From the NCBI RefSeq assembly GCF_050920415.1, contig NZ_CP169309.1: a stretch of 64,000 bases of DNA. One strand, given 5' to 3'. The position numbers and the translations under genes were made by a program. The notes beneath the pieces were generated by a model. The model saw nothing but the letters and a program-made list of their open reading frames with translations. It was not told where the DNA came from and did no database searches. Each line of letters opens with the position of its first letter. Position 1 is the stretch's first letter. This document shows positions 1,791 through 53,548 of the stretch, piece after piece. The stretch comes from Escherichia coli. Its GTDB lineage: Bacteria; Pseudomonadota; Gammaproteobacteria; Enterobacterales; Enterobacteriaceae.

Positions 1791-2092
1791 GATTGTCTGC
1801 TCCCCTGTCTTGTTATGGGAGCAGTATTTCGTTGCTGGTCAGTTTGATAAAGGAATTAAAACGTCTTGTTAAGAACAAAGCGTTTTTAGAAAAAAACTGG
1901 CAATGGTTAGCGAGTTTACGCATTTTGCAGCTTGGGCGAATGTAGCATGCCGATTCACAAACCAGATCAGATGTTCGCGCTCCGGCAAATTATTGCCATT
2001 TTGTTACATCCATTCCATATCTGTCGCTGGTTGATTGCCAGCGACGCGCCGTGATGCATGATAGGAGAATGAGATAATAAGAGAAGAAAAGT

Positions 2093-2722
2093 ATGATTAG
2101 GGTTGTGCTGGTGGATGACCATGTGGTGGTGCGCTCTGGCTTCGCACAGTTACTCTCTCTGGAAGACGATCTGGAGGTCATTGGTCAGTACAGTTGTGCC
2201 GCGCAGGCATGGTCGGCATTAACTCATAATGACGTTAATGTTGCCGTCATTGATATCGCCATGCCGGACGAAAATGGCCTCAGTCTGCTTAAGCGCCTGC
2301 GTGCACAAAAACCGCAATTTCGCGCCATTATTCTTAGCATTTATGACGCGCCCACCTTTGTGCAAAGCGCGCTGGATGCCGGTGCCAGCGGCTATTTGAC
2401 CAAACGCTGTGGGCCGGAAGAGTTAGTACAGGCGGTGCGCTCGGTCGGGCTGGGCGGGCATTATCTCTGTGCCGATGCAATTCGGGCTTTACGCGGCGGC
2501 GGGCAACCTGCCCAGGCGCTGGAAATTCTCACCCCACGAGAACGTGAAGTGTTTGATTTACTGGTCAAAGGAGACAGCGTTAAAGAGATCGCCTTTAAAC
2601 TCGAACTCAGTCATAAAACGGTACATGTGCATCGCGCCAATGTGCTGGGAAAACTGAACTGCCATAGCACCATTGAACTGGTACATTTTGCGCTCGACCA
2701 CCATCTGCTGGCGGGGCATTAA
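2093..2722 (+). CDS. NarL/UhpA-family response regulator (receiver + LuxR-type HTH), UhpA paralog
   Basis: 209 aa; receiver motifs VLVDDH and DIAMPDENG; C-terminal LuxR HTH (LTPREREVFDLL...KTVHVHRANVLGKL); roughly 50% identity to UhpA by eye; stop overlaps the kinase start (TAATG). Confidence 0.85.
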   Translation: MIRVVLVDDHVVVRSGFAQLLSLEDDLEVIGQYSCAAQAWSALTHNDVNVAVIDIAMPDENGLSLLKRLRAQKPQFRAIILSIYDAPTFVQSALDAGASGYLTKRCGPEELVQAVRSVGLGGHYLCADAIRALRGGGQPAQALEILTPREREVFDLLVKGDSVKEIAFKLELSHKTVHVHRANVLGKLNCHSTIELVHFALDHHLLAGH

Positions 2723-4263
2723 TGTCGCGTAACCTTCGTCATTGGGTGATTTCGCTGTTTATTGTGCTGGCCTGGGGAAGCGGCTGGCTGATGTTGTGGA
2801 CGCTCAGCTTTTATCTGACCAATAACGGTCAACAGGCAGTGTTATTTCTGCCGCACGGAGTTTACCTCGCTCTTCTTATTTTGCTCTCTCGCCGTTACTG
2901 GCCTGCGTTGGTGCACCCCCCTTTGCTGATGATGTTCTGGCTGCACAGCGAGCAACTGTTGAACGGCTATCTCATGCTGGCAACGCCGGTTATTAGCCTG
3001 CTTCCTGCCATCCTTGCACAAAACGTCTGGCACCGTTTTCCACTTTACTGGCAGCGTCTGACGTTGCTGTTAGCCTCAGTAACAGCAGCTTCATTGCTGA
3101 ATACAGCCATGCTAACCCCTTTTATGTCAGGCCCAATAATGCTGCCCGGTCTGACCTCATTTACCGGCAGCGTATTGTTGACGCCGTTTGTCTATCTCAT
3201 CTTTGAGTTTCTGCGCCAGCAGCATCGCTATCAGCTTCTGAGACTCGATACGCATAATCCCCCCTTGCGAACCTCTTTAATCATCTGGTGTAGCCTATTT
3301 TTTATTATTGGTATCGGCACCCAGATGGTGTTGTCGCCTGAAATCGAACGCCTGCTGCTGATCGTGGTATTTCTACCCAATGTGGTCATGGCCTGGAAAT
3401 TTGGCTGGCAAGGTGGCGTACTCTCGGGGCTTTTGGGCAGCATGATGATCACTATTGCCCGCCAGATTGGCGTGGGCTTTAGTAACCTGGTGGAACTGGA
3501 GATTTTTCTCGCAACCCAGGCATTGCTGGGAATTGGCCTGGGCATTGCCATCAGTCGCCAGCAACATCTGGCGCTAAACCTGCATCATTACCGTCAGCGA
3601 CTGGAGGCAGAACTGGCAGCACGGCGGGCATTGGCTGAAAAGCTGATCCACACCGAGGAAGACACGCGTAAAAGCCTGGCTCGCGAGCTGCACGACGAAA
3701 TCGGTCAGAACATTACCGCCATTCAGATCCAGTCGCAACTGGTGACGCGGGCACGCGATCCGGCGCAAGTTCATTCCGCAGCTAGCCAAATCAACGAACT
3801 CGCCCGCCGCATTCATCTCTCCACCCGCCAGTTGCTGCGCCAGTTGCGGCCACCCGCGCTTGATGAACTGACATTCCGCGAAGCATTACTTCATCTGATT
3901 AATGAATTTGCCTTTAGTGAACGCGGCATTCATTGCCAGTTTACCTATCAACTAACCACCACGCCAGAAAACGAAACGGTTCGCTTTACACTGTATCGGT
4001 TATTGCAGGAGTTACTCAATAACGTCTGTAAACACGCCGAAGCCAGCGAAGTGACGATTATTCTGCGCCAGCAGGGAGAGATATTGCACCTGGAGGTCAG
4101 CGACAACGGTATAGGAATCGCCAGCGGGAAAATGACCGGATTTGGCATTCAGGGGATGCGTGAACGCATCAGTGCCCTGGGCGGCGACTTAACGCTCGAA
4201 AAACATAACGGTACGCGGGTAATTGTTAACCTGCCCACATTTTTGCAACAAATCGCCGGATAA
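2722..4263 (+). CDS. Sensor histidine kinase, UhpB-like (membrane MASE1-type N-terminus, HisKA_3 H-box, HATPase)
   Basis: 513 aa; multi-TM N-terminal half; H-box ELHDEIGQNITAI; ATPase motifs DNGIGI and GFGIQGMRER; translationally coupled to the upstream regulator. Confidence 0.85.
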   Translation: MSRNLRHWVISLFIVLAWGSGWLMLWTLSFYLTNNGQQAVLFLPHGVYLALLILLSRRYWPALVHPPLLMMFWLHSEQLLNGYLMLATPVISLLPAILAQNVWHRFPLYWQRLTLLLASVTAASLLNTAMLTPFMSGPIMLPGLTSFTGSVLLTPFVYLIFEFLRQQHRYQLLRLDTHNPPLRTSLIIWCSLFFIIGIGTQMVLSPEIERLLLIVVFLPNVVMAWKFGWQGGVLSGLLGSMMITIARQIGVGFSNLVELEIFLATQALLGIGLGIAISRQQHLALNLHHYRQRLEAELAARRALAEKLIHTEEDTRKSLARELHDEIGQNITAIQIQSQLVTRARDPAQVHSAASQINELARRIHLSTRQLLRQLRPPALDELTFREALLHLINEFAFSERGIHCQFTYQLTTTPENETVRFTLYRLLQELLNNVCKHAEASEVTIILRQQGEILHLEVSDNGIGIASGKMTGFGIQGMRERISALGGDLTLEKHNGTRVIVNLPTFLQQIAG

Positions 4264-4347
4264 CCAGGAAAAAGTCTTAGGCATCCCGGATTTTCTCTCA
4301 TCCTCTTTCACTTTCATTTTCATATAGTCAGCAACATGGAGACGACC

Positions 4348-5652
4348 ATGCACGCGCGTTCAGCGAGAGAGATTAATCAATGCTACCGGACATTACGTCC
4401 GCGATTGCTGATGTGCATGATTATTGGCTACGCCGCATTTTATCTGACGCGAAAAAGCGTGAATTACGTCCTTCCGGCGCTGCAAACCGACCTCGGACTG
4501 GATAAAGGCGACATTGGCCTGCTGGGTTCGCTGTTTTATCTCAGCTACGGATTGTCGAAATTTACCGCCGGACTGTGGCATGACAGCCACGGACAACGCG
4601 GTTTTATGGGCGTCGGCTTGTTCGCCACTGGGCTATTGAACGTGGTGTTTGCCTTTGGCGAATCACTTACGCTTCTGCTTGTGGTCTGGACACTGAACGG
4701 ATTTTTTCAAGGCTGGGGGTGGCCACCGTGTGCCCGCTTACTGACCCATTGGTACTCCCGTAATGAACGTGGTTTCTGGTGGGGCTGCTGGAATATGTCG
4801 ATCAACATTGGCGGAGCGATTATTCCGCTGATTAGCGCCTTTGCCGCCCACTGGTGGGGCTGGCAGGCCGCGATGCTGACACCGGGGATTATCAGCATGG
4901 CATTAGGGATCTGGTTAACGCTACAGCTTAAAGGCACCCCCCAGGAAGAGGGATTACCGACGGTGGGTCAGTGGCGTCACGATCCGCTGGAATTACGTCA
5001 GGAACAACAAAGTCCGCCGATGGGGCTGTGGCAAATGTTGCGCACCACAATGCTGCAAAATCCGATGATCTGGCTGCTGGGTGTCTCTTATGTACTGGTT
5101 TATGTGATCCGGATTGCGTTAAACGACTGGGGCAATATCTGGCTGACGGAAAGCCACGGCGTCAACCTACTCAGCGCCAACGCCACGGTAATGCTGTTTG
5201 AAGTGGGCGGCTTACTCGGCGCGTTATTTGCCGGATGGGGTTCGGATTTGCTGTTTAGCGGGCAGCGAGCCCCCATGATTTTGCTGTTTACCCTGGGGTT
5301 GATGGTTTCGGTCGCTGCACTCTGGTTGGCACCGGTTCATCACTATGCCCTTCTGGCTGTGTGCTTTTTTACTGTGGGCTTTTTTGTCTTTGGCCCGCAA
5401 ATGCTGATTGGACTTGCGGCAGTGGAATGTGGACACAAAGCTGCGGCGGGTTCAATCACCGGATTTCTCGGTCTGTTCGCCTATCTCGGTGCGGCGCTGG
5501 CAGGCTGGCCATTGTCGCTGGTTATCGAACGCTACGGCTGGTCAGGAATGTTCAGTTTACTCTCGGTCGCCGCAGTACTTATGGGTTTACTGCTGATGCC
5601 GTTACTGATGGCGGGCATCACCACCACTCACGCTCGAAGGATAAAACAATGA
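4348..5652 (+). CDS. MFS organophosphate:phosphate antiporter-family protein, UhpC-like sensor/transporter
   Basis: 12-TM MFS with strong similarity to UhpC/UhpT family (e.g. FGPQMLIG..AAVEC, GFLGLFAYLGAALAGWPL); start chosen at ATG 4348 with GGAG 6 nt upstream; in-frame alternative ATG at 4336. Confidence 0.85.
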   Translation: MHARSAREINQCYRTLRPRLLMCMIIGYAAFYLTRKSVNYVLPALQTDLGLDKGDIGLLGSLFYLSYGLSKFTAGLWHDSHGQRGFMGVGLFATGLLNVVFAFGESLTLLLVVWTLNGFFQGWGWPPCARLLTHWYSRNERGFWWGCWNMSINIGGAIIPLISAFAAHWWGWQAAMLTPGIISMALGIWLTLQLKGTPQEEGLPTVGQWRHDPLELRQEQQSPPMGLWQMLRTTMLQNPMIWLLGVSYVLVYVIRIALNDWGNIWLTESHGVNLLSANATVMLFEVGGLLGALFAGWGSDLLFSGQRAPMILLFTLGLMVSVAALWLAPVHHYALLAVCFFTVGFFVFGPQMLIGLAAVECGHKAAAGSITGFLGLFAYLGAALAGWPLSLVIERYGWSGMFSLLSVAAVLMGLLLMPLLMAGITTTHARRIKQ

Positions 5653-6680
5653 AAATGCCCCTTACCTCTACTCTGATTGCTTCTGCCGTTGCGCTGGCAA
5701 CCTTAACGGGTGCCGCACAAGCGAAAGGTCGACTGGTGGTCTATTGCAGCGCCACCAATGAAATGTGTGAGACCGAAACCAAAGCGTTTGGCGAGAAATA
5801 TGATGTGAAAACCTCGTTTATCCGCAACGGCTCCGGTAGCACCCTGGCAAAAGTCGATGCTGAAAAGAAAAACCCACAGGCTGACGTCTGGTACGGCGGC
5901 ACCTTAGACCCGCAGTCGCAGGCCGGCGAGATGGGTCTGTTACAGGCATATAAATCGCCTAACCTTGAACAGATCATGGAAAAATTCCGCGATCCGGCAA
6001 AAGTGAAAGGAAACCTTTCCTCCGCCGTTTATGTGGGGATCCTCGGGTTTGGCGTCAACACAGAGCGTCTGAAAGAGAAAAACCTGCCTGTGCCGAAGTG
6101 CTGGAAAGATCTCACCAAACCTGAATATAAAGGCGAAATTCAGATTGCCGATCCACAAAGTTCCGGTACCGCCTACACCGCGCTGGCTACCTTTGCGCAG
6201 CTGTGGGGGGAAGATCAGGCCTTTGATTATCTAAAACAACTTAACACCAACGTCTCCCAGTACACCAAATCAGGCATTGCCCCGGCACGTAACGCCGCCC
6301 GCGGCGAAACGGCGATTGGTATTGGTTTCCTGCATGACTACTCGCTGGAAAAAGAACAGGGCGCACCACTGGAGTTGATTTCCCCGTGTGAAGGTACGGG
6401 CTACGAAATTGGCGGCGTCAGCATTCTGAAAGGCGCGCGCAACCTCGACAACGCCAAACTGTTTGTGGACTGGGTATTATCAAAAGAAGCTCAGGAACTG
6501 GCGTGGAAGAAAGGGAAGTCTTATCAGATCCTGACCAATACCACCGCCGAAACGTCGCCAAATTCGCTGAAGCTCGACGACCTGAAATTAATCAACTACG
6601 ACATGGATAAATACGGTTCCACGGATGTTCGTAAGGCATTGATTAATAAATGGGTCAGCGAAGTGAAGATGGGTAAATAA
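5649..6680 (+). CDS. afuA: Periplasmic substrate-binding protein, FbpA/AfuA family (putative sugar-phosphate binding)
   Basis: Start ATG 5649 overlaps MFS stop (ATGA) with AAGGA 7 nt upstream; signal peptide MKMPLTSTLIASAVALATLTGAAQA; FbpA-fold family; track ORF 5361 is an upstream in-frame extension that overlaps the MFS gene. Confidence 0.8.
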   Translation: MKMPLTSTLIASAVALATLTGAAQAKGRLVVYCSATNEMCETETKAFGEKYDVKTSFIRNGSGSTLAKVDAEKKNPQADVWYGGTLDPQSQAGEMGLLQAYKSPNLEQIMEKFRDPAKVKGNLSSAVYVGILGFGVNTERLKEKNLPVPKCWKDLTKPEYKGEIQIADPQSSGTAYTALATFAQLWGEDQAFDYLKQLNTNVSQYTKSGIAPARNAARGETAIGIGFLHDYSLEKEQGAPLELISPCEGTGYEIGGVSILKGARNLDNAKLFVDWVLSKEAQELAWKKGKSYQILTNTTAETSPNSLKLDDLKLINYDMDKYGSTDVRKALINKWVSEVKMGK

Positions 6681-6748
6681 ACCCGCATTGCGTGCATTTG
6701 CCGGGCGCAGCACAAACGCCTGCCCCGGCCAACCATACCGGAACTGCT

Positions 6749-8827
6749 ATGTCACAGACACTTGCACTCCATCCCGTGAAAAAGCGGGATGCGATTTTCC
6801 TTTGGGTTTTGCTGGGCTGGCTGGCATTTATCCTGTTGCCGAGCTGGAGTCTCGATTATGGTCTGCTGGAGTCCACGAGTGATGAGATCCTCGAGGCGTA
6901 CAGCTGGTCGCATTTTAATATCAGCTGGCTGTGGTATTTACTCCCGAGTTTGCTGCTGGTTCGCCCGTTTAATGAGGCCAAACGCGAGCAGCGTAGCCGT
7001 CATTATTTTGATGCCGGCTGGGCATTGCTTTGTTTAGCGTTTATGGTCATCAGTGCCACCATCGTTGGCCGCGGTCTAGGCTACGCCGCCATCGTGCTGT
7101 TTATCGAATTAAGCGCGATAATGACGCTGGCCTTAACCCGCCTCGAATGGCTGGGTGGCGACCGCTTTGTGATCGGCTCGCTGATTGCGATTGTGGCGCT
7201 GATTGGCATTTTTATCGTCTGGCCGAGCATCGCCATTTTTATCCCGATGTTCACCAACGACGCGGGAGGGTTCGCCCCACTGGCGTTTATGAATGTGCTC
7301 TCGCAGGCACATATTGTTCAGGTGATCGTCAACTCCATCGTCTTATCGATAGCGGTGGGTATTGGCTGTACTTTCTTCGGTCTGGTGCTGGCGATATATA
7401 CCACGCGCATCGCCAAACGCAGCGCCGTAATCGGCCGCATCTTTTCCATTCTGCCAATTGTCACGCCACCGTTTGTGGTCGGCTTAGGCGTTACGCTCAT
7501 GATGGGGCGCTCCGGCTACATAACGGAATTTATGGTGGAGTGGTTTGGGCTGACCAACACCAACTGGCTGTATGGTTTTACCGGGATCTGGCTGGCACAG
7601 GTCCTGGCATTCACGCCAATGGCTTTTATGATCCTTGATGGGGCCATTAAAACCATTCATCCCTCGCTGGAAGAGGCCTCCTACACCCTGCGTGCCAGCC
7701 GCTGGCAAACCTTTAACGGCGTGTTTGTGCCGTTGCTAAAGCCCGCGCTCGCCAATGCCTTTTTAATCGTCGTGGTACAGTCACTGGCTGATTTCAGTAA
7801 CCCGCTGGTGCTTGGCGGCAACTTCGACGTACTGGCGACGCAAATTTACTTCTACATTACCGGCTCGCAGCTGGATTATCAGGCCGCCAGCACCCTTGGC
7901 GCTTTCCTGCTGCTGTTCTCGCTACTGGTGTTCTGCGTCCAGTATATGTGGATTGGTAAACGCTCTTACGTCACGGTTTCCGGAAAGTCCTACCGCGGCG
8001 ATGTCCAGCCACTACCGGTCACCCTGGTGTGGAGCGTGGTCGCCATACTTGCGATATGGATTGTCTTTAACGCCCTGCTCTATGGCAGCATTTTCTACGG
8101 CAGCTTCACCGTGAACTGGGGCGTAGACTACACCCTAACGCTGGATAACTTTATCAAGTTATTTGGTCAGGGGATGAGCGACGGCGCGTGGCCTTCACTG
8201 TTAGATACCTTGCTCTACGCCGGGATTGCCGCACCCATTACCGCTATCTTTGGCCTGCTCATCGCCTGGGTGGTGGTGCGCCAACAATTCAAAGGCAAAA
8301 AGACCATCGAGTTCACCACCATGTTGTGCTTTGCCGTACCGGGTACGGTGGCGGGCGTCTCGTATATTCTCGCCTTTAACAGCGCTCCGGTTTATCTCAC
8401 CGGAACGGCGGCAATTGTGATTATCTCGATGGTGATGCGTAACGTTCCGGTGGGTATTCGCGCCGGGATTGCGGGTCTGGGGCAGATCGACAAATCGCTG
8501 GATGAAGCCTCACTTAGCCTGCGTGCGGGTTCCCTGCGAACCATTACGCACATTTTACTGCCGTTGTTACGCCCAGCTATTCTCTCGGCCCTGATTTACA
8601 GCTTTGTGCGGGCTATCACGACGGTCAGCGCCATCGTCTTTCTCGTCACGCCGGACACACGCGTGGCAACCGCCTACATCCTTAACCGCGTAGAAGACGG
8701 CGAATATGGCGTAGCCATCGCCTACGGTTCGATTCTGATCGTGGTGATGCTGGCGATTATTTTCCTCTTTGACTGGCTGATCGGTGAAGCACGTATTTCC
8801 CGTTCTAAAGCCAAAAACCAGGCGTAA
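6749..8827 (+). CDS. afuB: Fused two-domain ABC permease, FbpB/AfuB family
   Basis: About 690 aa polytopic membrane protein with duplicated permease halves typical of FbpB; start at ATG 6749 is tentative (track ORF begins at GTG 6692). Confidence 0.8.
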
Positions 8828-8838
8828 TGGAGCGCACT

Positions 8839-9885
8839 ATGAGTCAGAAAAATTTTGTGGAACTGCGCAACGTCACTAAACGATTCGGCAGTAATACGGT
8901 TATCGACAATATCAATCTCACCATCCCACAAGGGCAAATGGTGACGCTGCTCGGTCCTTCCGGATGCGGCAAAACCACCATTCTGCGTCTGGTTGCCGGG
9001 CTGGAAAAACCGAGCGAAGGGCAAATTTTTATAGATGGCGAAGATGTCACGCATCGTTCCATTCAGCAACGCGATATCTGCATGGTGTTTCAGTCATACG
9101 CTCTGTTCCCACATATGTCGCTGGGCGAAAACGTTGGCTATGGGCTGAAAATGCTTGGCGTGTCGCGTAGTGAAGTGAAGCAGCGGGTGAAAGATGCGCT
9201 AGCAATGGTGGATCTGGAAGGATTCGAAGACCGCTATGTCGACCAGATTTCCGGTGGTCAGCAACAGCGTGTGGCTCTGGCCCGTGCGTTGATCCTTAAG
9301 CCTAAAGTGCTGCTGTTTGATGAGCCGTTAAGTAACCTCGATGCCAACCTGCGTCGCAGCATGCGCGATAAAATCCGCGAGCTGCAAAAGCAATTTAACA
9401 TCACTTCGCTCTATGTGACTCACGATCAAAGTGAAGCTTTCGCGGTGTCCGACACCGTGTTGGTGATGAATAAAGGTCACATCATGCAGATTGGTTCACC
9501 GCAGGATCTCTATCGTCAGCCCGCCTCCCGCTTTATGGCAAGTTTTATGGGCGACGCCAACCTGTTCCCGGCGAACTTTAGCGAAGAGTATGTCGATATC
9601 TACGGTTATCGCCTGCCGCGCGCGGCGCATTTCCCGGCGCAAGGTAGCGGCACCGTCGGCGTTCGCCCGGAAGCCATCACCTTAAGCAATCACGGCGAAG
9701 AGAGTCAGCGTTGTGTTATTCGCCATGTCGCCTACATGGGGCCGCAGTACGAAGTGACCGTAGAATGGCATGGTCAGGAGATTTTATTGCAAGTCAACGC
9801 CACCCGTTTACAGCCCGATATTGGTGAGCACTATTACCTCGAAATCCATCCTTACGGGATGTTTGTTTTAGCGGATGCGGCATAA
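8839..9885 (+). CDS. afuC: ABC transporter ATP-binding protein, FbpC/AfuC family with C-terminal TOBE-like domain
   Basis: Walker [10 protein letters not shown], signature [15 protein letters not shown], Walker B LLFDEP; start ATG 8839 with GGAG 6 nt upstream; alternative ATG 8827 overlaps the afuB stop. Confidence 0.8.
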
Positions 9886-9897
9886 AAATAGCAGATA

Positions 9898-9927
9898 AAC
9901 GGTCCCAACCTGTCTTGAGGGACCGTT
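9898..9927 (+). terminator. Hairpin downstream of afuC (possible intrinsic terminator, weak U-tract)
   Basis: Inverted repeat AACGGTCCC / GGGACCGTT with 12-nt loop, 13 nt after the afuC stop; followed by CACCTGTTT. Confidence 0.35.
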
Positions 9928-9967
9928 CACCTGTTTAAACGTCGGACAACAATTATTCTCCGGCGTT

Positions 9968-12390: not shown

Positions 12391-12505
12391 GCATCCGCGC
12401 ACGCCAGCCGGATGCGGCGTGAACGCCTTATCCGGCCTACATTTCGCCCATGAGCCGTAGGCATGATAAGACGCGCAAAGCATCGCATCAGGCATCTGTG
12501 CACGG
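12391..12505. repeat. REP/BIME palindromic elements downstream of frmB
   Basis: GCCGGATGCGGCGTGAACGCCTTATCCGGCCTAC and GTAGGCATGATAAGACGCG...GCATCAGGCATC motifs typical of enterobacterial REP units. Confidence 0.75.
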
Positions 12506-13158: not shown

Positions 13159-14370
13159 TCAGGCATCAGCGCACGGCTGCATTCGTGATTTTCGACTCAT
13201 CAAAATAAACACCGCTAATCCAGCAACAAGAATACCCGGCGCAGATGCGGCCATTACGCCAACCGTGCCAGTGCCTAATGCCAGCATTTTCCCTGCCAGC
13301 AACGGGCCGCTCATGGCACCCAGACGCCCAATCGCCACGGCGGTTCCCACGCCGGTTGCGCGGATCTGCGAACTGTAAAACAACGGAGCCAATGCATACA
13401 AAACGCTTTGCCCACCTGTTGCAAACAACCCTGCGACGAATCCCGCCAGCAACATACCGTTAAATGATGACACCGTTCCCAGCGCTAACAGCGAAGCTAA
13501 CATACCGCTATAAATCAGTAGCGACATGGTCATTGGACGCAGTTTATCCATCAGTGCGCCCAATATTAACGTCCCGCTTGCCGCCCCCATTTGTAGTGCA
13601 AACATCACCCCTGCCGCCTGCGATGGCTGGAATCCTTGTTCCACTAAAAGCAGCGGTAGCCAGTTGATCAACATGTAGACCACCAGCAAAGTGAAGAAAT
13701 AACACAACCACAGCAGCAGCGTTGCGGTTGCCGTGTCGGGCGCAAATAACGCACGCAGCGGCGGCGCGGCCTGTTTTTCGCCAGCGAACACCGCCGACTC
13801 CGGCAGCCAGCGCATTAACAGTGGCACCAGAATCAACGGCACCACACCACCTACCCAAAACACCGTTTGCCAGGCTAAGTTTGCCCCGGCAAAACCCAGT
13901 GTCGCCGCCAGCGCCGCGCCAATGGGAACCCCGCAATACATCAGGCTCACCGCCGTTCCACGAAAACGTGGCCCCGCCGCTTCAGACGTCAGGGCGATAA
14001 GATTCGGCAACGCCGCCCCCAGCCCGACACCGGTCATTAGCCGCGCAAAGACCAGTGAGGGGAAATCCCAGGCAATAGCCGTTGCCAGCGAGAACAAACC
14101 AAACAGCGCAACTGAACCAATCAAAATGCGTTTACGACCATAACGGTCCGCCAGCATTCCGCCAACCAGCGCGCCGGGTAGCAAACCGAGTATTCCGGCA
14201 CTGAATATCCAGCCCATTTGCATTTTATCGAGTGCAAAAGCCTGGGCGATGCCACCCGCCGCAATGCCAGCCGCCTGAAGATCCAGTCCTTCCATCAGAG
14301 CGACTAAAAAACAAAGCCCGATGGTCAGCATCAGGCGGGATGAAGATGATGAAGGGGTACGAGTCGACAT
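13159..14370 (-). CDS. mhpT: 3-(3-hydroxyphenyl)propionate MFS transporter
   Basis: 403 aa from ATG 14370 (MSTRTPSSSSS...); 12-TM MFS; matches MhpT; downstream of mhpE. Confidence 0.9.
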   Translation of the reverse strand: MSTRTPSSSSSRLMLTIGLCFLVALMEGLDLQAAGIAAGGIAQAFALDKMQMGWIFSAGILGLLPGALVGGMLADRYGRKRILIGSVALFGLFSLATAIAWDFPSLVFARLMTGVGLGAALPNLIALTSEAAGPRFRGTAVSLMYCGVPIGAALAATLGFAGANLAWQTVFWVGGVVPLILVPLLMRWLPESAVFAGEKQAAPPLRALFAPDTATATLLLWLCYFFTLLVVYMLINWLPLLLVEQGFQPSQAAGVMFALQMGAASGTLILGALMDKLRPMTMSLLIYSGMLASLLALGTVSSFNGMLLAGFVAGLFATGGQSVLYALAPLFYSSQIRATGVGTAVAIGRLGAMSGPLLAGKMLALGTGTVGVMAASAPGILVAGLAVFILMSRKSRMQPCADA

Positions 14371-14449
14371 AAGATGAACCTCGTTGCGAATGCAGGTGAA
14401 TCGCGGCTGATACATTGCCAGCCGCGTAATCAAAACCATTTAATGACTG

Positions 14450-14745
14450 CCTACGGACGAAAGTAGGCCGGATAAGGCGTTTATGCCGCATCCGGCTGTC
14501 GTGCGCCATTGCCTGATTCGACGCTGACGCGTCTTATCATGCCTACAAATTCCCGCGCCATCCGTAGGCCGGATAAGACGTTTACGCCGCATCCGGCAGT
14601 CGTGCACAGATGCCTGATGCGACGCTGACGCGTCTTATCATGCCTACAAATTCCCGCGCCATCCGTAGGCCGGATAAGGCGTTTATGCCGCATCCGGCAG
14701 TCGTGCGCCATTGCCTGATGCGACGCTGACGCGTCTTATCAGGCC
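14450..14745. repeat. BIME array: about 2.8 tandem copies of a 101-bp unit built from REP palindromes
   Basis: Unit beginning GTAGGCCGGATAAG recurs at 14464, 14565 and 14666; each unit contains GCCGCATCCGGC and GACGCGTCTTATCATGCCTAC palindromes. Confidence 0.85.
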
Positions 14746-14779
14746 TGGGATGGGTATACAAAATGCACGTTGCCAGCAG

Positions 14780-15795
14780 TCAACATGATTTGTTGTTGCA
14801 CAGATCCAGCGCCACGTCGACGATCATATCCTCCTGGCCGCCGACCATCCGGCGTTTACCCAGCTCAACGAGAATATCCACCGCGCTTAAACCATAACGC
14901 GCCGCCGCCGTTTCACAGTGACGCAAAAAGCTTGAGTAAACACCAGCGTATCCCAGCGCCAGCGTTTCGCGGTCGACACGTACCGGACGATCCTGCAACG
15001 GACGCACCAGGTCGTCAGCGGCATCCATTAACGCATAGAGATCGGTCCCATGCTGCCAGCCCAGTTTATCCGCGGCGGCAATAAACACTTCCAGCGGTGC
15101 GTTACCTGCACCCGCGCCCATCCCCGCGAGGCTGGCGTCAATGCGGTCACAGCCCTCTTCCACCGCCGCGATAGAGTTCGCCACGCCAAGACTCAAGTTA
15201 TGGTGAGCATGCATGCCGGTTTGCGTTTCCGGTTTGAGCACCGCTTTCAGGGCGCGGAAACGGTCACGGATATCGCTCATGTTCATCGCACCGCCAGAAT
15301 CCACCACATAAATACAGGTCGCACCGTAGCCTTCCATCAGCTTTGCCTGTTTTGCGAGATTCTCTGGCGTGGTCATGTGGCTCATCATCAGAAAGCCAAC
15401 GGTATCCATTCCGAGTTCGCGGGCATACTGAATATGCTGAGCGGAAACATCAGCTTCGGTGCAGTGCGTAGCCACACGAACCACCCGCGCGCCAGCCTGC
15501 CAGGCATTTTTCAGATCGTGAATAGTGCCAATTCCTGGCAGCAACAATGTCGCGATTTTGGCGTGCTTCACCACATCCGCCGCAGCTTCAATCCATTCAA
15601 GGTCGCTATGCGCACCGAAACCATAGTTAAAGCTGGAACCCTGCAAACCATCCCCATGGGCCACTTCAATCGAATCCACGCGGGCATCATCCAGTGCTTT
15701 GGCAATCTGGCGGACATTTTCAAGTGAATACTGATGACGAATGGCGTGCATACCGTCACGCAACGTGACGTCTGAAATATAAAGTTTTTTACCGT

Positions 15796-15799
<4 letters not shown>
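14780..15799 (-). CDS. mhpE: 4-hydroxy-2-oxovalerate aldolase
   Basis: 339 aa; HMGL-like aldolase; matches MhpE; overlaps mhpF by 4 nt. Confidence 0.95.
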
Positions 15800-21246: not shown

Positions 21247-22080
21247 ATGCAGAAAGATGAGCAGACGGAATACAAAACCGTGCGCGGCTTAACCCGCGGT
21301 CTAATGTTATTAAATATGTTAAATAAACTCGATGGCGGTGCCAGCGTCGGGCTGCTGGCGGAGCTCAGCGGCCTGCATCGCACCACTGTGCGGCGACTGC
21401 TGGAAACGCTGCAGGAAGAGGGATATGTCCGGCGCAGTCCCTCCGATGACAGTTTTCGTCTGACCATCAAAGTGCGGCAATTAAGCGAAGGATTTCGTGA
21501 CGAACAATGGATTTCTGCACTGGCAGCCCCGCTGCTGGGCGATCTGTTGCGCGAAGTGGTATGGCCGACAGATGTGTCCACGCTGGATGTTGATGCAATG
21601 GTGGTACGCGAAACCACCCACCGTTTCAGCCGTTTATCCTTTCACCGGGCAATGGTCGGGCGACGTTTACCGCTTCTGAAAACCGCCTCGGGCCTGACCT
21701 GGCTGGCCTTTTGCCCGGAACAAGAACGCAAGGAGTTAATCGAAATGTTAGCCGCCCGCTCCGGTGATGACTATCAGCTGGCACGGGAGCCGTTAAAGCT
21801 GGAAGCCATTCTGGCGCGCGCACGCAAAGAGGGTTACGGACAGAACTATCGTGGCTGGGATCAGGAAGAGAAGATCGCCTCCATTGCCGTGCCCCTACGC
21901 AGTGAACAACGGGTGATTGGCTGTCTGAATCTGGTGTATATGGCGAGCGCAATGACCATCGAACAGGCAGCGGAAAAGCATCTTCCGGCGCTACAACGGG
22001 TAGCAAAACAGATCGAAGAAGGGGTTGAATCGCAGGCTATTCTGGTGGCCGGACGGCGAAGCGGCGTGCATTTACGCTAG
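21247..22080 (+). CDS. mhpR: IclR-family transcriptional activator of the mhp operon
   Basis: 277 aa from ATG 21247 (MQKDEQTEYKTVRGL...); IclR HTH plus effector domain; divergent from mhpA. Confidence 0.92.
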   Translation: MQKDEQTEYKTVRGLTRGLMLLNMLNKLDGGASVGLLAELSGLHRTTVRRLLETLQEEGYVRRSPSDDSFRLTIKVRQLSEGFRDEQWISALAAPLLGDLLREVVWPTDVSTLDVDAMVVRETTHRFSRLSFHRAMVGRRLPLLKTASGLTWLAFCPEQERKELIEMLAARSGDDYQLAREPLKLEAILARARKEGYGQNYRGWDQEEKIASIAVPLRSEQRVIGCLNLVYMASAMTIEQAAEKHLPALQRVAKQIEEGVESQAILVAGRRSGVHLR

Positions 22081-22194
22081 TTGCGCCAATGTGTAATTTG
22101 GCCCATTCTCATCGTTATTCGCCCATTTGCCCACATGCACAGTACGGGCTGCACGCTACGCTAATGCCATCAATACTGTGATGTGGAGCAAATC

Positions 22195-22971
22195 ATGAAA
22201 ATTACTCAAATTCGTAATGCCACCCAAATTATCCAATACGCTGGCAAAACATTTCTTATTGACCCGTTACTCGCGCCTAAAGGAAGTTATCCGGGTTTTG
22301 CCGGAACGGCACGCGCAGAAATCCGCAATCCAACGGTAGAATTACCGTGCGATTTAACAACGTTACTCAACGTTGACGCCCTAATAGTGACCCATTTGCA
22401 TGAAGATCACTGGGACGAAACAGCCTCCCGCGTCGTCCCCAAAGATAAACTGATTTATGTGCAAAATGAGCAAGATGCTGAATCACTGCATAAACAAGGA
22501 TTTACGCATCTTACCGTACTTGCCGACGAGACTAAATTTGGCGATATTACTCTGCATAAAACGACAGGGCAGCACGGCTCCGATCGCACCTATGCAGACC
22601 CGGCTATGGCGAAGCGTTTAGGCGCAGCCTGCGGCGTTGTTTTCCAGCACCCGACAGAGAAAACGCTCTATCTGGCTGGCGATACCCTCTGGCGTGATGA
22701 CGTCGAGGCTACAATGCTAACTTTCCAACCAGAAGTGGTGGTGTTGAATGCCGGATTTGCGCATGTTCTGGGGCATGGCGCGATAATTATGGGAGCTGAA
22801 GATATTCTCAAAACACATTTTACCCTGCCAGAAGCGCAAATTGTCGCGACACATATGGAGGCCGTAAACCACTGTTTGCTGACGCGTGATGCGCTCAAGG
22901 AATACGCCAGAGATAATCAAATTATCGAATTTGTGAACGTACCAGAAGATGGTGAAACGTTGACATTCTAA
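22195..22971 (+). CDS. Metallo-beta-lactamase-fold hydrolase (accessory, not at this locus in K-12 as recalled)
   Basis: 258 aa from ATG 22195 with GGAG 6 nt upstream; HxHxDH-type motif region (VTHLHEDHWDE); track ORF starts at an upstream GTG. Confidence 0.8.
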   Translation: MKITQIRNATQIIQYAGKTFLIDPLLAPKGSYPGFAGTARAEIRNPTVELPCDLTTLLNVDALIVTHLHEDHWDETASRVVPKDKLIYVQNEQDAESLHKQGFTHLTVLADETKFGDITLHKTTGQHGSDRTYADPAMAKRLGAACGVVFQHPTEKTLYLAGDTLWRDDVEATMLTFQPEVVVLNAGFAHVLGHGAIIMGAEDILKTHFTLPEAQIVATHMEAVNHCLLTRDALKEYARDNQIIEFVNVPEDGETLTF

Positions 22972-22990
22972 TTCGGAGATAAAGAGTGTT

Positions 22991-23944
22991 ATGCGCCCGC
23001 TAACTGTTGCCATTATCGCCGTTGCCGGTTTTAGTCCTTTTCACCTTTCCGTACCGTTTATCGTGTTTAGCGAAAAAATGGCGGAGAAAAAACGCTTTCA
23101 TGTAATTATCTGCGCTGAAAAGCCGGGAAATGTGGACTCTGCCGATGGGTTTTCCGTAACCGCCACCCATGACTATACGGCAGTCATCCAGGCGGATATT
23201 GTGATAATTCCTTACTGGGGAACAATTACACAAAAACCGCCACAAAAACTGCTGGAAGCCTTAACGACCGCACGAGATAACGGGGCACAGATTGTCGGGC
23301 TTTGCCTGGGCACGTTTGTGCTCGGCTATGCAGGTTTACTGAACAATAAGCGTGCTGCCACGCACTGGGAGTTCGAGCGTGAATTTCAGGCACGTTTTCC
23401 ACAAACACATCTGGATATTAACGCGTTGTATGTAGACGATGATGGCATTATTACCTCTGCCGGTACTGCCGCGGCGCTGGATTGCTGTTTGTATATTGTT
23501 CGGCAACATTTTGGCAGCGACTATGCTAACCATATTGCCCGACGGATGGTCGTACCGCCATATCGCACCGGCGGTCAGGCGCAGTTTATAGAGCAACCGG
23601 TGCCGAAAAATACCCATGATGAACGCATTAACCTCCTGCTGGATTACCTGCGGCAAAACATTGCGCAACAGCATGATCTCGACTCGCTGGCTCAGCGAGT
23701 AATGATGAGTCGCCGCACACTAACCCGTCATTTTATGAAAGCGACCGGTTCGAGTATCGCCGAATGGCTCATCACTGAACGCTTACGCCGTAGCCAGGAA
23801 CTGTTGGGATCCAGTCAGTTGCCCGTTGAGCGGATAGCGGCTGAGGTGGGTTTTCTCTCACCTGTGACCTGGCGTCAGCATTTTAAATCTCACTTCGGCG
23901 TCAGCCCCGCAGAATGGCGCAAAACCTTTCGTGGTATGGCATGA
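22991..23944 (+). CDS. GlxA-type transcriptional regulator (DJ-1/PfpI-like domain + AraC-family HTH)
   Basis: 317 aa; N-terminal class I glutamine amidotransferase-like fold; C-terminal AraC HTH (RTLTRHFMKATGSSIAEWLITERL...); stop TGA 23942-23944 lies inside the lacI -10 hexamer. Confidence 0.8.
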   Translation: MRPLTVAIIAVAGFSPFHLSVPFIVFSEKMAEKKRFHVIICAEKPGNVDSADGFSVTATHDYTAVIQADIVIIPYWGTITQKPPQKLLEALTTARDNGAQIVGLCLGTFVLGYAGLLNNKRAATHWEFEREFQARFPQTHLDINALYVDDDGIITSAGTAAALDCCLYIVRQHFGSDYANHIARRMVVPPYRTGGQAQFIEQPVPKNTHDERINLLLDYLRQNIAQQHDLDSLAQRVMMSRRTLTRHFMKATGSSIAEWLITERLRRSQELLGSSQLPVERIAAEVGFLSPVTWRQHFKSHFGVSPAEWRKTFRGMA

Positions 23945-48152: not shown

Positions 48153-49109
48153 TTAAACCACCCGATCCAGCCCCAACATGCCGCGAGCCTGAATGAAACA
48201 GAGCAGCAACGTTCCCCATAAGGCCATCGTCAGGTAGGGGCTTATCCCGAGAATATTGAAGCCGCTTTCAATAATTTGCAGAAGAAACAGCGCCAGCACC
48301 ATACCAATTATCCGCCCGCTGCCGCCGTCCGGATTAACCCCGCCGAGTACTGCCGCGAGGATTGACACCAGCAAGTACGATTCGCCATAAGAGGCCTTAG
48401 CCGAGTTGAGTTTCGACATCATCAAAAATGCCGCTACCGCACAAAGCAAGGCGGAAATGACATACACCCATATCAGCACCCGACGCGTGTTAATACCGGA
48501 GTAAAGTGTTGCTCGTTCATTAGAACCAATCAGATAAATGGATTTACCGAGCGGTGTTTTCTCCAGCAATATCCACAACCCCAGCGCCACTGCGGTAAAC
48601 AACCACATCGGTAGCGGAATACCGAACCACTGTGCATGATTCAACCACAGCACCCATGAGGGATAATTAGCAATGGCGCTACCGCCTGTCACCAGAATAT
48701 TTACTCCTTTGAGCAACGTCATCATCCCAAGCGTTGCAAGAATTGGCGACACTCGAATACCGGCAATCAATACGCCATTACATAAACCAATTATCACCGC
48801 CGCGCCAGCGCCCGCCAGCAGCGTAGCGACAACCGTAGCAATACCCGGTGGATACTGAGTCGCCACCCACGCCATCACCAGTGAACAGGCGTTAGCAGTG
48901 GCAATAATTGACAAGTTAATGCCACCGCAAAGCATGGTCACCGCCATAGCCAACGCCAGAATGCCCAGCACGGGCATTTGCGAAGCGACGGACTGGAAAT
49001 TACTTATCGACCAGAAAATCTCCGGCATAGTAATGCTGAAGGCGGCAACAGTTAGCACCAGCAGGCCGATCAAGTAAAACTCAACGTTATTACGCCACGA
49101 TTTTTTCAT
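48153..49109 (-). CDS. Carbohydrate ABC transporter permease (CUT2/RbsC-like), second of two
   Basis: About 318 aa multi-TM protein; start ATG 49109 overlaps the upstream permease stop (ATGA); accessory relative to K-12. Confidence 0.85.
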   Translation of the reverse strand: MKKSWRNNVEFYLIGLLVLTVAAFSITMPEIFWSISNFQSVASQMPVLGILALAMAVTMLCGGINLSIIATANACSLVMAWVATQYPPGIATVVATLLAGAGAAVIIGLCNGVLIAGIRVSPILATLGMMTLLKGVNILVTGGSAIANYPSWVLWLNHAQWFGIPLPMWLFTAVALGLWILLEKTPLGKSIYLIGSNERATLYSGINTRRVLIWVYVISALLCAVAAFLMMSKLNSAKASYGESYLLVSILAAVLGGVNPDGGSGRIIGMVLALFLLQIIESGFNILGISPYLTMALWGTLLLCFIQARGMLGLDRVV

Positions 49110-50077
49110 AGCAGACTCCGGTTCTGATGCTGACTCCACGCCGTGGCGCTAATGCTGGCAACGATGATGATGCCTGTGATCAATGTTTGCCAGTAAGACG
49201 AGACTCCCAATAAATTTAGCCCGTTTTGCATCACTGCCAACAACACCACGCCGAGCAAAGTACCGGTTAACGTGCCGCGCCCGCCGAGCAAACTAGTGCC
49301 GCCAAGCACCACCGCAGCCAGTACTGTCAGCTCATAACCCAGAAGAGAATCGGGGGCGACAGTCATCACCGTCCACGACTGCACTACACCCGCAGCACCA
49401 GACATCAATCCCATATAGCCGTAAACGAAAAGTTGCAGTTTCAGCACGCTAAAGCCGATGCGACTGGCTGATTCACGGTTCCCACCAAGGGCATAGATTT
49501 TGCGCCCCACACTGGTGAAATTCATGATAAATGCTGTTAGCAGCACCACCGTAATCATGGCGATCAGCGGCAGACCAAGGCCATAGTCATAGCCGTCAGC
49601 ATCGGTGTACTTGAACAACATTACCCCCTGCTCAAACCACGGCGGAAAGTCGTACAGCCACACACCTTTACTCAACCATAACAGCAGGCCATAGAAAATA
49701 TTCAGCGTCGAAATGGTGATGATGATAGAAGGCACCCGTAGGCGATTAACCAGTAAGGCGTTTATTAAGCCAAGTAAAATGCCGATGCCGCCCGCCAGGG
49801 CAAACGCGACAGCAAAGTTGCCACCCATTTTTTGTAGCAACAGCACCATGCCGTATTGCGCAATGATGGTCATTGCTGGAAACGAAATATCAATTCCACC
49901 GGAAATTAACACCACAAACAAACCACAGGCGAGAATAGTCAACATGGCATAGTTATTGGCGAGATCGTACAAATTACCGAATGTCAGAAACTCGTCGCTG
50001 CGCCAGGCAAGGCCGACAAACAGCCCCACAATCAGTAATGCCAGCCAGAATTCATGACGTTTTTTCAGTTCAGCCAT
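49106..50077 (-). CDS. Carbohydrate ABC transporter permease (CUT2/RbsC-like), first of two
   Basis: 323 aa multi-TM protein; overlaps the ATPase stop by 8 nt. Confidence 0.85.
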   Translation of the reverse strand: MAELKKRHEFWLALLIVGLFVGLAWRSDEFLTFGNLYDLANNYAMLTILACGLFVVLISGGIDISFPAMTIIAQYGMVLLLQKMGGNFAVAFALAGGIGILLGLINALLVNRLRVPSIIITISTLNIFYGLLLWLSKGVWLYDFPPWFEQGVMLFKYTDADGYDYGLGLPLIAMITVVLLTAFIMNFTSVGRKIYALGGNRESASRIGFSVLKLQLFVYGYMGLMSGAAGVVQSWTVMTVAPDSLLGYELTVLAAVVLGGTSLLGGRGTLTGTLLGVVLLAVMQNGLNLLGVSSYWQTLITGIIIVASISATAWSQHQNRSLL

Positions 50078-51554
50078 TTACCACCTCCGCAATCCTGGCC
50101 TGAGAACTGCTGTCAGGCAGGAAGCTATGGGTGATCTGACCTTTTTGCATTACCAAAATCCGGTGGCTTTGATACCACGCTTCTTCAATTTCATCGCAGA
50201 TCATCAATACCGCAATGCCATGAGCCGCCAGATCGCTGATAATGCCGTATATTCCTGCTTTGTTGGCGATATCAACACCGACAGTCGGGCTATCGAGAAT
50301 CAACAGTCGTGGCCCAATCGCCAGCCATTTGGCGATCGATACTCGCTGCGCGTTACCCCCGGAAAGCGTATTCACCGGGAGATGTGGGTCAGAGACTTTG
50401 ATGGTCAATGCCTTAATTAGCCTATCCACCAGGTCACGCACTTTAGCTTCACTCAGAAAGCCGAAGCGATCTTTTACCTTGTGAAAAACAGTGCTAATGA
50501 TGTTGTCTTCAATAGATTGCGCCATCACCAAACCGCGCGACATGCGATCTTCCGAAACATAACCAATACCGTGGCGGATGGCGTCCTGGTTACTATGCAG
50601 TGTTACCGGCTGACCGTTGATGAGGATCTCACCAGCATCCGGTCGGGTCATACCAAACAGACTCAGACATAATTCCGTGCGCCCCGCACCAAGCAGGCCA
50701 ACAATCGACACCACTTCGCCCGCTTCCACCCGCAAGTTAATATTTTGATATTCCCCATGACGACTTAAATTACGCACCTCCAGCACTGGGGTGCTGGATT
50801 TTCCCTGCCACAACTCTCGCACCTGATATTCAAACTCCTGGCCGGTCATCAGGAAACCGAGTTGTTTTGTGGTCATCTCTGCAGCCGGAAAGGTCCCGAC
50901 CAGCTCACCATCTTTCAACACTGAAATACGGTCGGAAACTTCCATCACCTCTTCCAGACGATGACTGACGAAGACCACGCAAATCCCGCGTTCCCGCAAT
51001 TGATGCACCACCTGCAATAACCCTTGCACTTCCTGATGGGTCAGCGAAGCGGTTGGTTCATCCATCACGATCAACCGTGCGTCCTGCGCCAGTGCACGGC
51101 AAATTGCCACCAGCTGACAGCGGGCAATTGAAAGCTCAGAAACGAGCGTATCCAGTGGCAATGTGACGTTAATACTGGTCATTGCCGCCTGCGCCACCTC
51201 ACGCAGACGACGTCGGTTAACAAACAGACCGTGGTGATAGTGATTCACGGCGATATTCTCCCAGACACTCAGGTTAGGAAATAAAGAGAGGTCCTGATAA
51301 ATCACCTGAATCCCCTGCGCCACCGAAGCGGCGGGTGTCAGCTTTGACCAGTTTTTCCCACCAAGCGTAATTTCCGCCCCCTCATCCGGGCGATAAACAC
51401 CGGACATAATTTTAATCAACGTCGATTTACCACAGCCGTTTTGCCCGGCAAGGCAGTGCACCTCACCCGACATAAAGTCGAGAGAAACATCGCGCAGCGC
51501 TCGCGTGGCATGAAACGTTTTGTTGATATGACGAAGGGAAAGGAAGGTTTCCAT
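50070..51554 (-). CDS. Carbohydrate ABC transporter ATP-binding protein with tandem nucleotide-binding domains (RbsA/LsrA-like)
   Basis: About 494 aa from ATG 51554 with AGGGGA upstream; two NBDs (Walker A GQNGCGKST; signature LSGGNAQRV in the second domain). Confidence 0.88.
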   Translation of the reverse strand: METFLSLRHINKTFHATRALRDVSLDFMSGEVHCLAGQNGCGKSTLIKIMSGVYRPDEGAEITLGGKNWSKLTPAASVAQGIQVIYQDLSLFPNLSVWENIAVNHYHHGLFVNRRRLREVAQAAMTSINVTLPLDTLVSELSIARCQLVAICRALAQDARLIVMDEPTASLTHQEVQGLLQVVHQLRERGICVVFVSHRLEEVMEVSDRISVLKDGELVGTFPAAEMTTKQLGFLMTGQEFEYQVRELWQGKSSTPVLEVRNLSRHGEYQNINLRVEAGEVVSIVGLLGAGRTELCLSLFGMTRPDAGEILINGQPVTLHSNQDAIRHGIGYVSEDRMSRGLVMAQSIEDNIISTVFHKVKDRFGFLSEAKVRDLVDRLIKALTIKVSDPHLPVNTLSGGNAQRVSIAKWLAIGPRLLILDSPTVGVDIANKAGIYGIISDLAAHGIAVLMICDEIEEAWYQSHRILVMQKGQITHSFLPDSSSQARIAEVVNG

Positions 51555-51567
51555 AGCATCCCCTGGC

Positions 51568-51592
51568 AATAAGAATCGGGGCTTTCGCCCCG
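51568..51592 (-). terminator. Intra-operon hairpin between binding-protein and ATPase genes (possible partial terminator)
   Basis: CGGGGC-GAAA-GCCCCG stem-loop on the transcribed strand followed by AUUCUUAUU. Confidence 0.4.
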
Positions 51593-51602
51593 AAGAAATG
51601 GA

Positions 51603-52589
51603 TTAATAAAGTGAGTCAATATTGTCTTTGTTGACCAGTAATACCTTATGGAAACGGATAATTCGCTTATCCATATCTACGTCGGCCTTACCGAGATTCT
51701 CCATTTCTAATCCAGGTTTGATCTCTTCACCCTTCAGCAACGTGCTGGCGACGGCCGCGAGTGCGTAACCTGCAGAGGCCGGATCGTAAGTAATCCCTTC
51801 GGTGATATCACCACTTTTAATCAGTGATGCCGCCTGTGAAGGGATCATCATGCCATAGACTGCGACTTTATTTTTCGCCCGTTTCTCTTTCACTGCACGT
51901 CCCGCGCCAATCGGACCGTTTGAACCAAAGGAGACAACCGCTTTCAAGTCAGGATAGGTTTTCATCAGGTCCAGTGTGGTACGACGTGAGTCATCCACAC
52001 TCTCGGCAACCGGCATGCGGCGGGTAACTTCATGCATATCCGGGTAATGCTCTTTCTGGTATTTCACCAGCAAGTCAGCCCATAAGTTATGCTGCGGCAC
52101 GGTCAAACTACCCACGTAAATCACGTAGCCGCCCTTGCCACCCATGCGTTTCGCCATATGTTCAACATATTCAGCGGCAAATTTTTCGTTATCAATGATT
52201 TCGATATCCCAGTTAGCACTTGGCTGACCGGGGGATTCGTTGGTCAGAACCACAATTCCGGCATCTCGCGCTTTTTTGAATACCGGTTCCAGCACGTTGG
52301 CATCGTTTGGCACAATTGTAATTGCATTAACCTTACGGGCGATTAAATCCTCAATGATTTTAACCTGTTGCGGTGCATCAGTACTTGAAGGCCCCACCTG
52401 TGACGCATTAACACCAAAGGCTTTACCCGCCTCGACCACACCTTCGCCCATGCGATTAAACCACGGCATACCATCGACTTTAGAGATATTCACCACGACT
52501 TTTTCCGCGGCCTGGAGCGGCGCAGAAATTAGCGCAGCGCCTAATAACAGCGAAGACACCATATTGATAACAAAACGTTTATTCATCAT
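51603..52589 (-). CDS. Periplasmic sugar-binding protein, LsrB/RhaS-like (type I PBP)
   Basis: 328 aa with signal peptide MMNKRFVINMVSSLLLGAALISAPLQA; C-terminal NKDNIDSLY resembles the LsrB C-terminus; GAGG SD upstream. Confidence 0.85.
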   Translation of the reverse strand: MMNKRFVINMVSSLLLGAALISAPLQAAEKVVVNISKVDGMPWFNRMGEGVVEAGKAFGVNASQVGPSSTDAPQQVKIIEDLIARKVNAITIVPNDANVLEPVFKKARDAGIVVLTNESPGQPSANWDIEIIDNEKFAAEYVEHMAKRMGGKGGYVIYVGSLTVPQHNLWADLLVKYQKEHYPDMHEVTRRMPVAESVDDSRRTTLDLMKTYPDLKAVVSFGSNGPIGAGRAVKEKRAKNKVAVYGMMIPSQAASLIKSGDITEGITYDPASAGYALAAVASTLLKGEEIKPGLEMENLGKADVDMDKRIIRFHKVLLVNKDNIDSLY

Positions 52590-52839
52590 TTCAGCCTCAT
52601 TGCAGGGTAGTCAGGAAGTGTTCGCCCAAATTAGCGCGCTGGAGAGAATAAGAATTTTCGAATATTTTTATGCAGAATAAACAGCCCTATTTCAGGCAGC
52701 TATTAAAAATTTGGTTGTAAATATGGACAAAACGGGCAGTAACAATAAGTGTGACAATCATCACGTAAAAAATAGCAAAATAAACAAAATTAGCGACACT
52801 TTATGTTTGTGAGCTTATTTCGCGTAGAAAAATAGTTAT

Positions 52840-53250: not shown

Positions 53251-53548
53251 GGCAATATTTTCGCGATAACAGAACAACAAATTACATCTTAATTACTGTC
53301 GATAACTATCAGCAAGAGGATCATTGGTTTTTCTATGTTTAATCTTTTTTATCCGAAGCAGGTCACATTTATGACTTGATAAATACCTTTGTTAAAACTC
53401 ACTTTTGTGTATTTCTCTCAAATAATCCCCTGGAAATTATGCCGGGAGATTATAAAGTTCAGGATCATTCATTAACAAACCATTCCCGCCCCACTCCCTG
53501 GGGCTTAAATCTCTTACTATTCACCGTTGCAGGCGTTTCAAATTCGTA

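Follow-up and report, generated by a model that had tools for sequence, protein, structure and literature searches.

The array in the mhpE-mhpT gap

In the 64,000-nucleotide stretch of Escherichia coli DNA analysed here (contig NZ_CP169309.1; hereafter the window), mhpE and mhpT both lie on the minus strand and are separated by a gap of 409 bp that holds a tandem repeat (Table 1). Tandem Repeats Finder returned a single array with a period of 101, 2.8 copies, 91% matches, no indels and a score of 505. A gap-free repeat search recovered three in-register copies of 101 nt, at 14463, 14564 and 14665, with identities of 100, 92 and 80%. The initial annotation had described nearly three copies of a 101-bp unit of REP palindromes, a tandem BIME array, between the two genes, and both the copy number and the make-up of the repeat were confirmed. 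Its span of 14450-14745 held apart from the left edge, which lay about 13 nt too far out: at 14450-14462 a short CCTAC...GTAGG inverted repeat adjoins the array without belonging to the 101-bp period. The CCTAC arm of this inverted repeat occupies 14450-14454, and its other arm, GTAGG at 14463-14467, serves as the foot of the first Y REP. The unique leader between the array and mhpT holds a hairpin of 7-9 bp (14403-14425) and the mhpT ribosome-binding site.

REP consensus sequences were taken from the Methods of Durrant et al. 2024 (PMC11208160) and placed by local alignment. Within each unit a Y REP is followed, across 13 nt of linker, by an inverted Z2 REP, and a linker of 17 nt completes the unit. 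Six REPs were placed, three of them Y (33-34 of 35 consensus positions) and three Z2 (33-34 of 37), and on the plus strand they run Y(-) Z2(+) Y(-) Z2(+) Y(-) Z2(+), that is, in alternating orientation. No Z1 REP was found in the array region, where no Z1 alignment reached 60% of its length. The GTAG foot is present in five of the six REPs, and the Z2 nearest mhpE has CCAG instead; this REP ends GGCCTGG and not GGCCTAC, so that the GTAG/CTAC tetranucleotide is missing, and this left junction is specific to the lineage. The REP-tail motif ATCAGGCCTAC, allowing at most one mismatch, has 13 matches in the window against 0.68 expected, far beyond chance. The complete 409-bp gap sequence is identical in an independent complete assembly, that of strain MFDS1022581, and the repeat is therefore not an assembly artefact.

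Further REP tails with at most one mismatch to the same motif lie in other intergenic gaps of the window, at 12430-12467, 30273, 33747, 36598, 41354 and 55960-55998. Inverted pairs of such tails occur in the yaiL-fghA gap and at 55960-55998.

Table 1. Genes, open reading frames and parts of the repeat at the mhpE-mhpT locus, in positions of the window.
Feature	Position	Strand	Evidence
mhpT, 3-hydroxyphenylpropionate transporter, downstream of array	13159..14370	-	PGAP annotation of MFDS1022581
Spurious 94-aa ORF, overlaps mhpT start out of frame, enters array	14225..14509	-	ORF list, Pfam, PGAP
Unique conserved leader, array to mhpT start, 92 nt	14371..14462	-	Present in every strain compared
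Whole BIME-2 array, three Y + Z2 units	14463..14746	.	Tandem Repeats Finder, repeat search, REP placement
Y REP nearest mhpT, 33/35	14463..14497	-	Consensus alignment; GTAG foot read on + strand
Spurious 76-aa ORF, all repeat sequence	14481..14711	-	ORF list, Pfam, PGAP
Head-to-head linker, 13 nt, GTCGTGCGCCATT	14498..14510	.	Sequence read; no IHF consensus
Z2 REP, 33/37, variant tail ATCATGCCTAC	14511..14546	+	Consensus alignment
Tail-to-tail linker, 17 nt, AAATTCCCGCGCCATCC	14547..14563	.	Sequence read
Y REP, middle copy, 34/35	14564..14598	-	Consensus alignment
Head-to-head linker, variant GTCGTGCACAGAT, like K-12 linker	14599..14611	.	Sequence comparison
Z2 REP, 34/37, variant tail ATCATGCCTAC	14612..14647	+	Consensus alignment
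Tail-to-tail linker, 17 nt, same as first	14648..14664	.	Sequence read
Y REP nearest mhpE, 34/35	14665..14699	-	Consensus alignment
Head-to-head linker GTCGTGCGCCATT	14700..14712	.	Sequence read
Z2 REP nearest mhpE, 33/37, foot truncated	14713..14746	+	Consensus alignment, strain comparison
Unique spacer, mhpE stop codon to first REP, ~33 nt	14747..14779	-	Sequence, strain comparison
mhpE, 4-hydroxy-2-oxovalerate aldolase, upstream of array	14780..15799	-	PGAP annotation of MFDS1022581

In the Gilson/Bachellier classes, as restated by Ton-Hoang et al. 2012 (PMC3333891), BIME-1 elements combine Y with Z1, occur in single copy and have a long L linker, in which an IHF site is often present. BIME-2 elements combine Y with Z2, have a short S linker, and occur in multiple tandem copies whose number varies between strains at a given locus. 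The array described here is a BIME-2 array and not an element of the IHF-binding BIME-1 type, because it is built of Y and Z2 without Z1, has short linkers, stands in tandem copies and lacks an IHF consensus site; a consensus scan for WATCAANNNNTTR gave no match in 14371-14779. With the BIME-2 family (e.g. the arrays at sucB-sucC, tldD-yhdP and rhaA-rhaD) the window's array has in common alternating Y and Z2, a short linker, tandem arrangement, extragenic position and a number that varies between strains.

The initial annotation had suggested binding of gyrase or IHF, and its mention of IHF raises the alternative that a BIME-1 (RIB/RIP) element bends the DNA at the 3' end of the mhp operon. 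Elements of that type are likewise built of REPs and are also found at the 3' ends of transcription units (PMC2817692). However, they require Y with Z1 and a long, IHF-bearing L linker in single copy, whereas here linkers of 13 and 17 nt join tandem units that contain neither a Z1 REP nor an IHF match. The BIME-1 reading was rejected on this composition and on the consensus scan of the gap, and we give it next to no probability. The IHF part of the suggestion, a BIME-1 trait, is thereby withdrawn, and since the array is of the BIME-2 class and without an IHF site only the association with gyrase applies, which is established for that class (PMC3333891, PMC6379681). Gyrase cleavage sites are over-represented in BIME-2 elements, where Y is cut more often than Z2, and cleavage of their Y REPs is preferential and independent of transcription (PMC6379681). 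Such cleavage is documented for a subset of BIME-2 elements (PMC6379681); by family resemblance the Y REPs of the present array would likewise be preferred sites of DNA gyrase binding and cleavage.

Four minus-strand open reading frames with start codons cross the array (94, 76, 59 and 55 aa), and their presence is what speaks for the possibility that repeat-crossing frames encode real small proteins. None of the four has a Pfam family match at E <= 1, on which ground the coding reading was rejected, and PGAP calls no gene between mhpE and mhpT in the identical sequence of MFDS1022581. Moreover, 101 is not divisible by 3, so that gain or loss of a unit in sister strains shifts the crossing frames and the ORFs are not conserved; one of them also overlaps the mhpT start out of frame. 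The chance that any of them is a genuine gene appears minute. The 94-aa and 76-aa frames, which had been listed at the outset as spurious, do exist as ORFs and were rightly dismissed, and on sequence grounds the array-crossing ORFs are by-products of the repeat.

Copy number and alleles across E. coli

The locus was followed across 5,426 complete E. coli genomes with a query made of the two flanks alone, the distance between the flanks serving as a ruler. The mhpE-mhpT locus was present in 4,923 of these genomes. Sixty rows were sampled at even ranking steps, and in 58 of them both flanks could be joined in one place. The arrays of these 58 genomes, uncorrected for clonal relatedness, form separate length classes in steps of about 101 bp: a single REP was the most frequent form (27/58), followed by three REPs (12/58), nine (11/58), five (5/58) and seven (2/58), while the six-REP form of the window was met once (1/58). 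One representative per length class was verified by sequence, and the other sampled genomes were assigned by length only. The sequences read contained a single Y REP in O157 and strain 2779, Y-Z2-Y in E2865, five REPs in LF3-1, seven in YY76-1, and Y-(Z2-Y)x4, nine REPs in a gap of 577 bp, in K-12 MG1655. Roughly half of the sampled E. coli thus carry a single Y REP, which argues that a multi-unit array is dispensable for mhp function.

The K-12 array, also present on F'128, shares with the window's array its locus and flanking genes, its Y and Z2 REPs, the 17-nt tail-to-tail linker and the mhpT leader. It differs in having nine REPs in its 577-bp gap, where the window has six, as (Z2-Y)x3, in 409 bp. 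In strain A30 (horse, NZ_CP092500.1) the flank query matched over its first 366 nt only, and the annotation under the match names mhpT and a transcriptional regulator; this suggests a deletion or rearrangement that removed the array together with mhpE.

Identity to K-12 is only 93-96% over the whole length of the window, but it reaches 99.997% to E. coli MFDS1022581 over positions 1-63312. Flanks of mhpT and mhpE that are at least 98.5% identical to those of the window were found in only 9 of the 5,426 complete genomes. These comparisons place the source of the window in a rare and divergent lineage of E. coli, which may be a cryptic clade. The mhpE gene itself is 339 aa long in the window and 337 aa in K-12 (1,020 vs. 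1,014 nt), and a version of 1,026 nt occurs in a group of genomes with 97.5% identity; its last codons and the position of its stop vary by lineage.

Several blocks set the window apart from K-12. An 8-kb block at 1828-9953 was without a K-12 match in this comparison, and K-12 has yaiS-yaiP-yaiX(IS2)-yaiO in its place; the block is annotated with a response regulator, a MASE1 sensor kinase, a UhpC-like receptor and a ferric-type ABC transporter. Some 1.8 kb at 22076-23912, absent from K-12, separate mhpR from lacI, which adjoin there; in MFDS1022581 this block is annotated with an MBL-fold metallo-hydrolase and a GlxA-family regulator. Between yahK and yahJ, a 5-kb block (48224-53488) that is absent from K-12 carries annotations for an autoinducer-2-type sugar ABC transporter and an ASCH-domain protein. 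At the end of the window, 63308-64000 is part of an IS2 copy, 99.6% identical to IS2A of K-12, that runs past the window end. The insertion disrupts pdeL, a gene left intact in MFDS1022581, which is otherwise nearly identical.

Arrays of the window's lineage start with the Z2 that lacks the GTAG foot, at a junction where CCCATCCCAG is followed directly by GCCTGATAAG. Relative to the K-12 form, this junction amounts to the loss of 61 bp, which hold the first Y with its linker and the GTAG, and it accounts for the even REP counts in this lineage. One Z2-Y pair (2 REPs) was found in the 97.5%-identity group, two pairs (4 REPs) in 2013C-4282 and WL297, and three pairs (6 REPs) in seven genomes plus the window. 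The two-pair span is exactly 101 bp shorter than the window's, between flanks that are 99.8% identical to the window's; this allele was read by sequence in 2013C-4282 only and assigned by span in WL297. Copy-number change at the site, which the initial annotation had expected and proposed to check by comparing strains, is thus borne out, with 1, 3, 5, 7 or 9 REPs in the main lineage and 2, 4 or 6 in that of the window.

The last Y REP of 2013C-4282 is a hybrid that starts like the second Y of the window and finishes like the third, which suggests that neighbouring units underwent unequal recombination or replication slippage. Strain N96, whose flanks are 98.5% identical to those of the window, carries a three-pair array identical to the window's, and the unit nearest mhpT in this shared array has two private substitutions. 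For these two reasons the three-pair form is probably ancestral in the window's lineage and the two-pair form a deletion derived from it. The Z2 loop reads GCGTCAGCGTC in every copy of the window and GCGTTAGCGTC in K-12. This C versus T difference is the only clean lineage marker, as gap-free unit identities within and between arrays are blurred by indels of 1-2 nt.

The BIME family is thought to have been spread by a REP-associated tyrosine transposase (TnpA-REP/RAYT), and for the local change in copy number host recombination or replication would suffice. No RAYT gene lies within the 64-kb window, and the REP nearest mhpE is without the GTAG foot that TnpA-REP needs.

Insertion and rearrangement at the array

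In the dog isolate CUVET17-972 (NZ_CP115370.1), a sampled genome whose flanks were too distant to be joined, an IS621 copy lies inside a K-12-type nine-REP array (segment coordinates 6552-8407). The junctions read GT[AG]-IS-[AG]GCCTGATAAG, with the AG/CT core at both, and the insertion point is the GTAG foot of a Z2 REP. Read on the other strand, the junction is ATCAGGC[CT]AC, which Durrant et al. (PMC11208160) report as the natural target of IS621, with CT as its core. IS621, an element that targets REPs, thus has a natural insertion site in the array, and the earlier view of such arrays as hotspots for IS insertion found a direct example at this very site. The window's own array contains no perfect copy of the IS621 target 11-mer. 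It does contain five sites with one mismatch, three in Y REPs and two in Z2 REPs, and the mismatch in the Y REPs falls at a position reported as tolerated (PMC11208160).

The same locus has been met before as a site of rearrangement. Lin et al. 2011 (PMC3161906) identified the mhpE-mhpT REP array of K-12 and F'128 as a hotspot of rearrangement junctions, with the REP cluster near lac taking part in 20% of the junctions listed, and devoted a supplementary figure to the predicted structure of the cluster.

Transcription, RNA structure and significance

Simple scans of the gap gave neither a sigma-70-like promoter nor a convincing intrinsic terminator; the promoter scan was a crude consensus search, and its result is compatible with a dedicated mhpT promoter in the 92-nt leader. 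Only two weak terminator-like hairpins were seen, one inside mhpT and one at the 3' end of mhpE (14780-14790), where it overlaps the stop codon and has a T-rich run behind it. The lack of promoter and terminator in the gap fits, weakly, with read-through, and mhpT is probably reached, at least in part, by transcription coming from the mhp operon. A full-text literature search, which did not extend to Ferrandez 1997 or Xu 2013, found nothing on co-transcription of mhpE and mhpT.

A transcript of mhpABCDFE-(mhpT) would read the minus strand, and its array portion is predicted to fold into very stable hairpins. Folded as minus-strand RNA, 14371-14790 (420 nt) reached -191.2 kcal/mol (z = -7.2), and none of 100 shuffled sequences was as stable. 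Single units folded at -35 to -41 kcal/mol, and their structure was either a pair of REP hairpins or a single long Y:Z2 hairpin. By analogy with the family, these hairpins probably protect the upstream mhp mRNA from 3'-exonucleases and attenuate read-through transcription into mhpT. Protection of mRNA by REPs was reportedly described by Newbury and colleagues in 1987. Liang and co-workers are said to have found in 2015 that translation of an upstream gene can be depressed by REPs lying within about 15 nt of its stop codon; here the first REP follows the mhpE stop codon at about 33 nt, and an effect of this kind should therefore not apply. As to attenuation, a Rho-dependent form has been linked to REP/BIME elements in work cited in PMC2817692.

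The array also resembles an annotated RNA family. Each unit matches the 77-nt model of naRNA4 (Rfam RF02564) end to end, and with a gathering threshold of 59.5 bits all three units pass on the plus strand (84.1, 74.4 and 70.9 bits) and one of three on the minus strand (60.0, 54.1 and 49.2 bits). No other REP site of the window forms a tandem array with scores at this threshold. naRNA4 was defined from one Y+Z2 unit of REP325 by Qian et al. 2015 (PMC4550694), who found that its complement also condensed DNA with HU in vitro, so that what counts is the structure and not the sequence, and that transcripts arise from about 80% of REPs. REP325 and the window's array both consist of tandem Y+Z2 units. 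REP325 has six units between yjdM and yjdN and comes with evidence of HU binding and nucleoid compaction, whereas the window's array has three units and is known from sequence.

The locus might accordingly be read as a cluster of naRNA4-type sRNA genes, whose two-hairpin RNAs of about 77 nt would bind HU, bridge DNA cruciforms and aid chromosome condensation as reported for REP325. The scores above threshold, the activity of the naRNA4 complement and the general transcription of REPs are in keeping with this, as is the folding of two of the three minus-strand units into two separate hairpins. However, RF02564 was itself built from one BIME-2 unit, so that the match restates the identity of the Y+Z2 unit, adds nothing beyond it and is not independent evidence for an RNA gene. 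Transcription of this locus is expected in the sense opposite to the RF02564 model, and on that strand two of the three units stay below threshold. One long Y:Z2 hairpin, in place of the two of naRNA4, is preferred by the middle minus-strand unit and also by the one plus-strand unit that was folded (14668-14745). Furthermore, strains most often carry one Y REP at this locus, and no conserved naRNA4-like product can thus be required. We regard the sRNA reading as unlikely and prefer that of a BIME-2 array whose hairpins would act within the mhp transcript. In view of the activity of the naRNA4 complement, a naRNA-like by-product of the array keeps a low probability.

For this array, one can further imagine that the number of 101-bp units is a heritable and reversible dial on read-through into mhpT or on the survival of mhp mRNA. 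The clean ladder from 1 to 9 REPs, and the change by one unit between genomes with 99.8% identical flanks, are compatible with such a dial, which we nevertheless consider improbable. If it were true, lineages that gain or lose units would thereby balance the uptake of 3-hydroxyphenylpropionate against its catabolism.

Taken as a whole, we are highly confident in reading the locus as a BIME-2 array in the untranslated mhpE-mhpT gap of a rare lineage, a local allele of an E. coli-wide cluster, including the roles that it would share with its family. The type of element, its presence at this site and its instability were already known, and the finding is in this respect an ordinary one. The only new details are the even-numbered allele of the window's lineage, with its truncated first Z2, and the ladder of alleles.

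The correct annotation of the region is a BIME-2/REP array, neither genes nor an independent sRNA locus, and the ORFs that cross it should be discarded. The site is fragile and polymorphic, lies near lac, and is an amplification-junction hotspot in K-12 as well as an IS621 target, all of which bears on strain typing, assembly checks and engineering of the lac-mhp region. The allele ladder from 1 to 9 REPs would provide a natural series in which BIME copy number can be set against the expression of the neighbouring genes.
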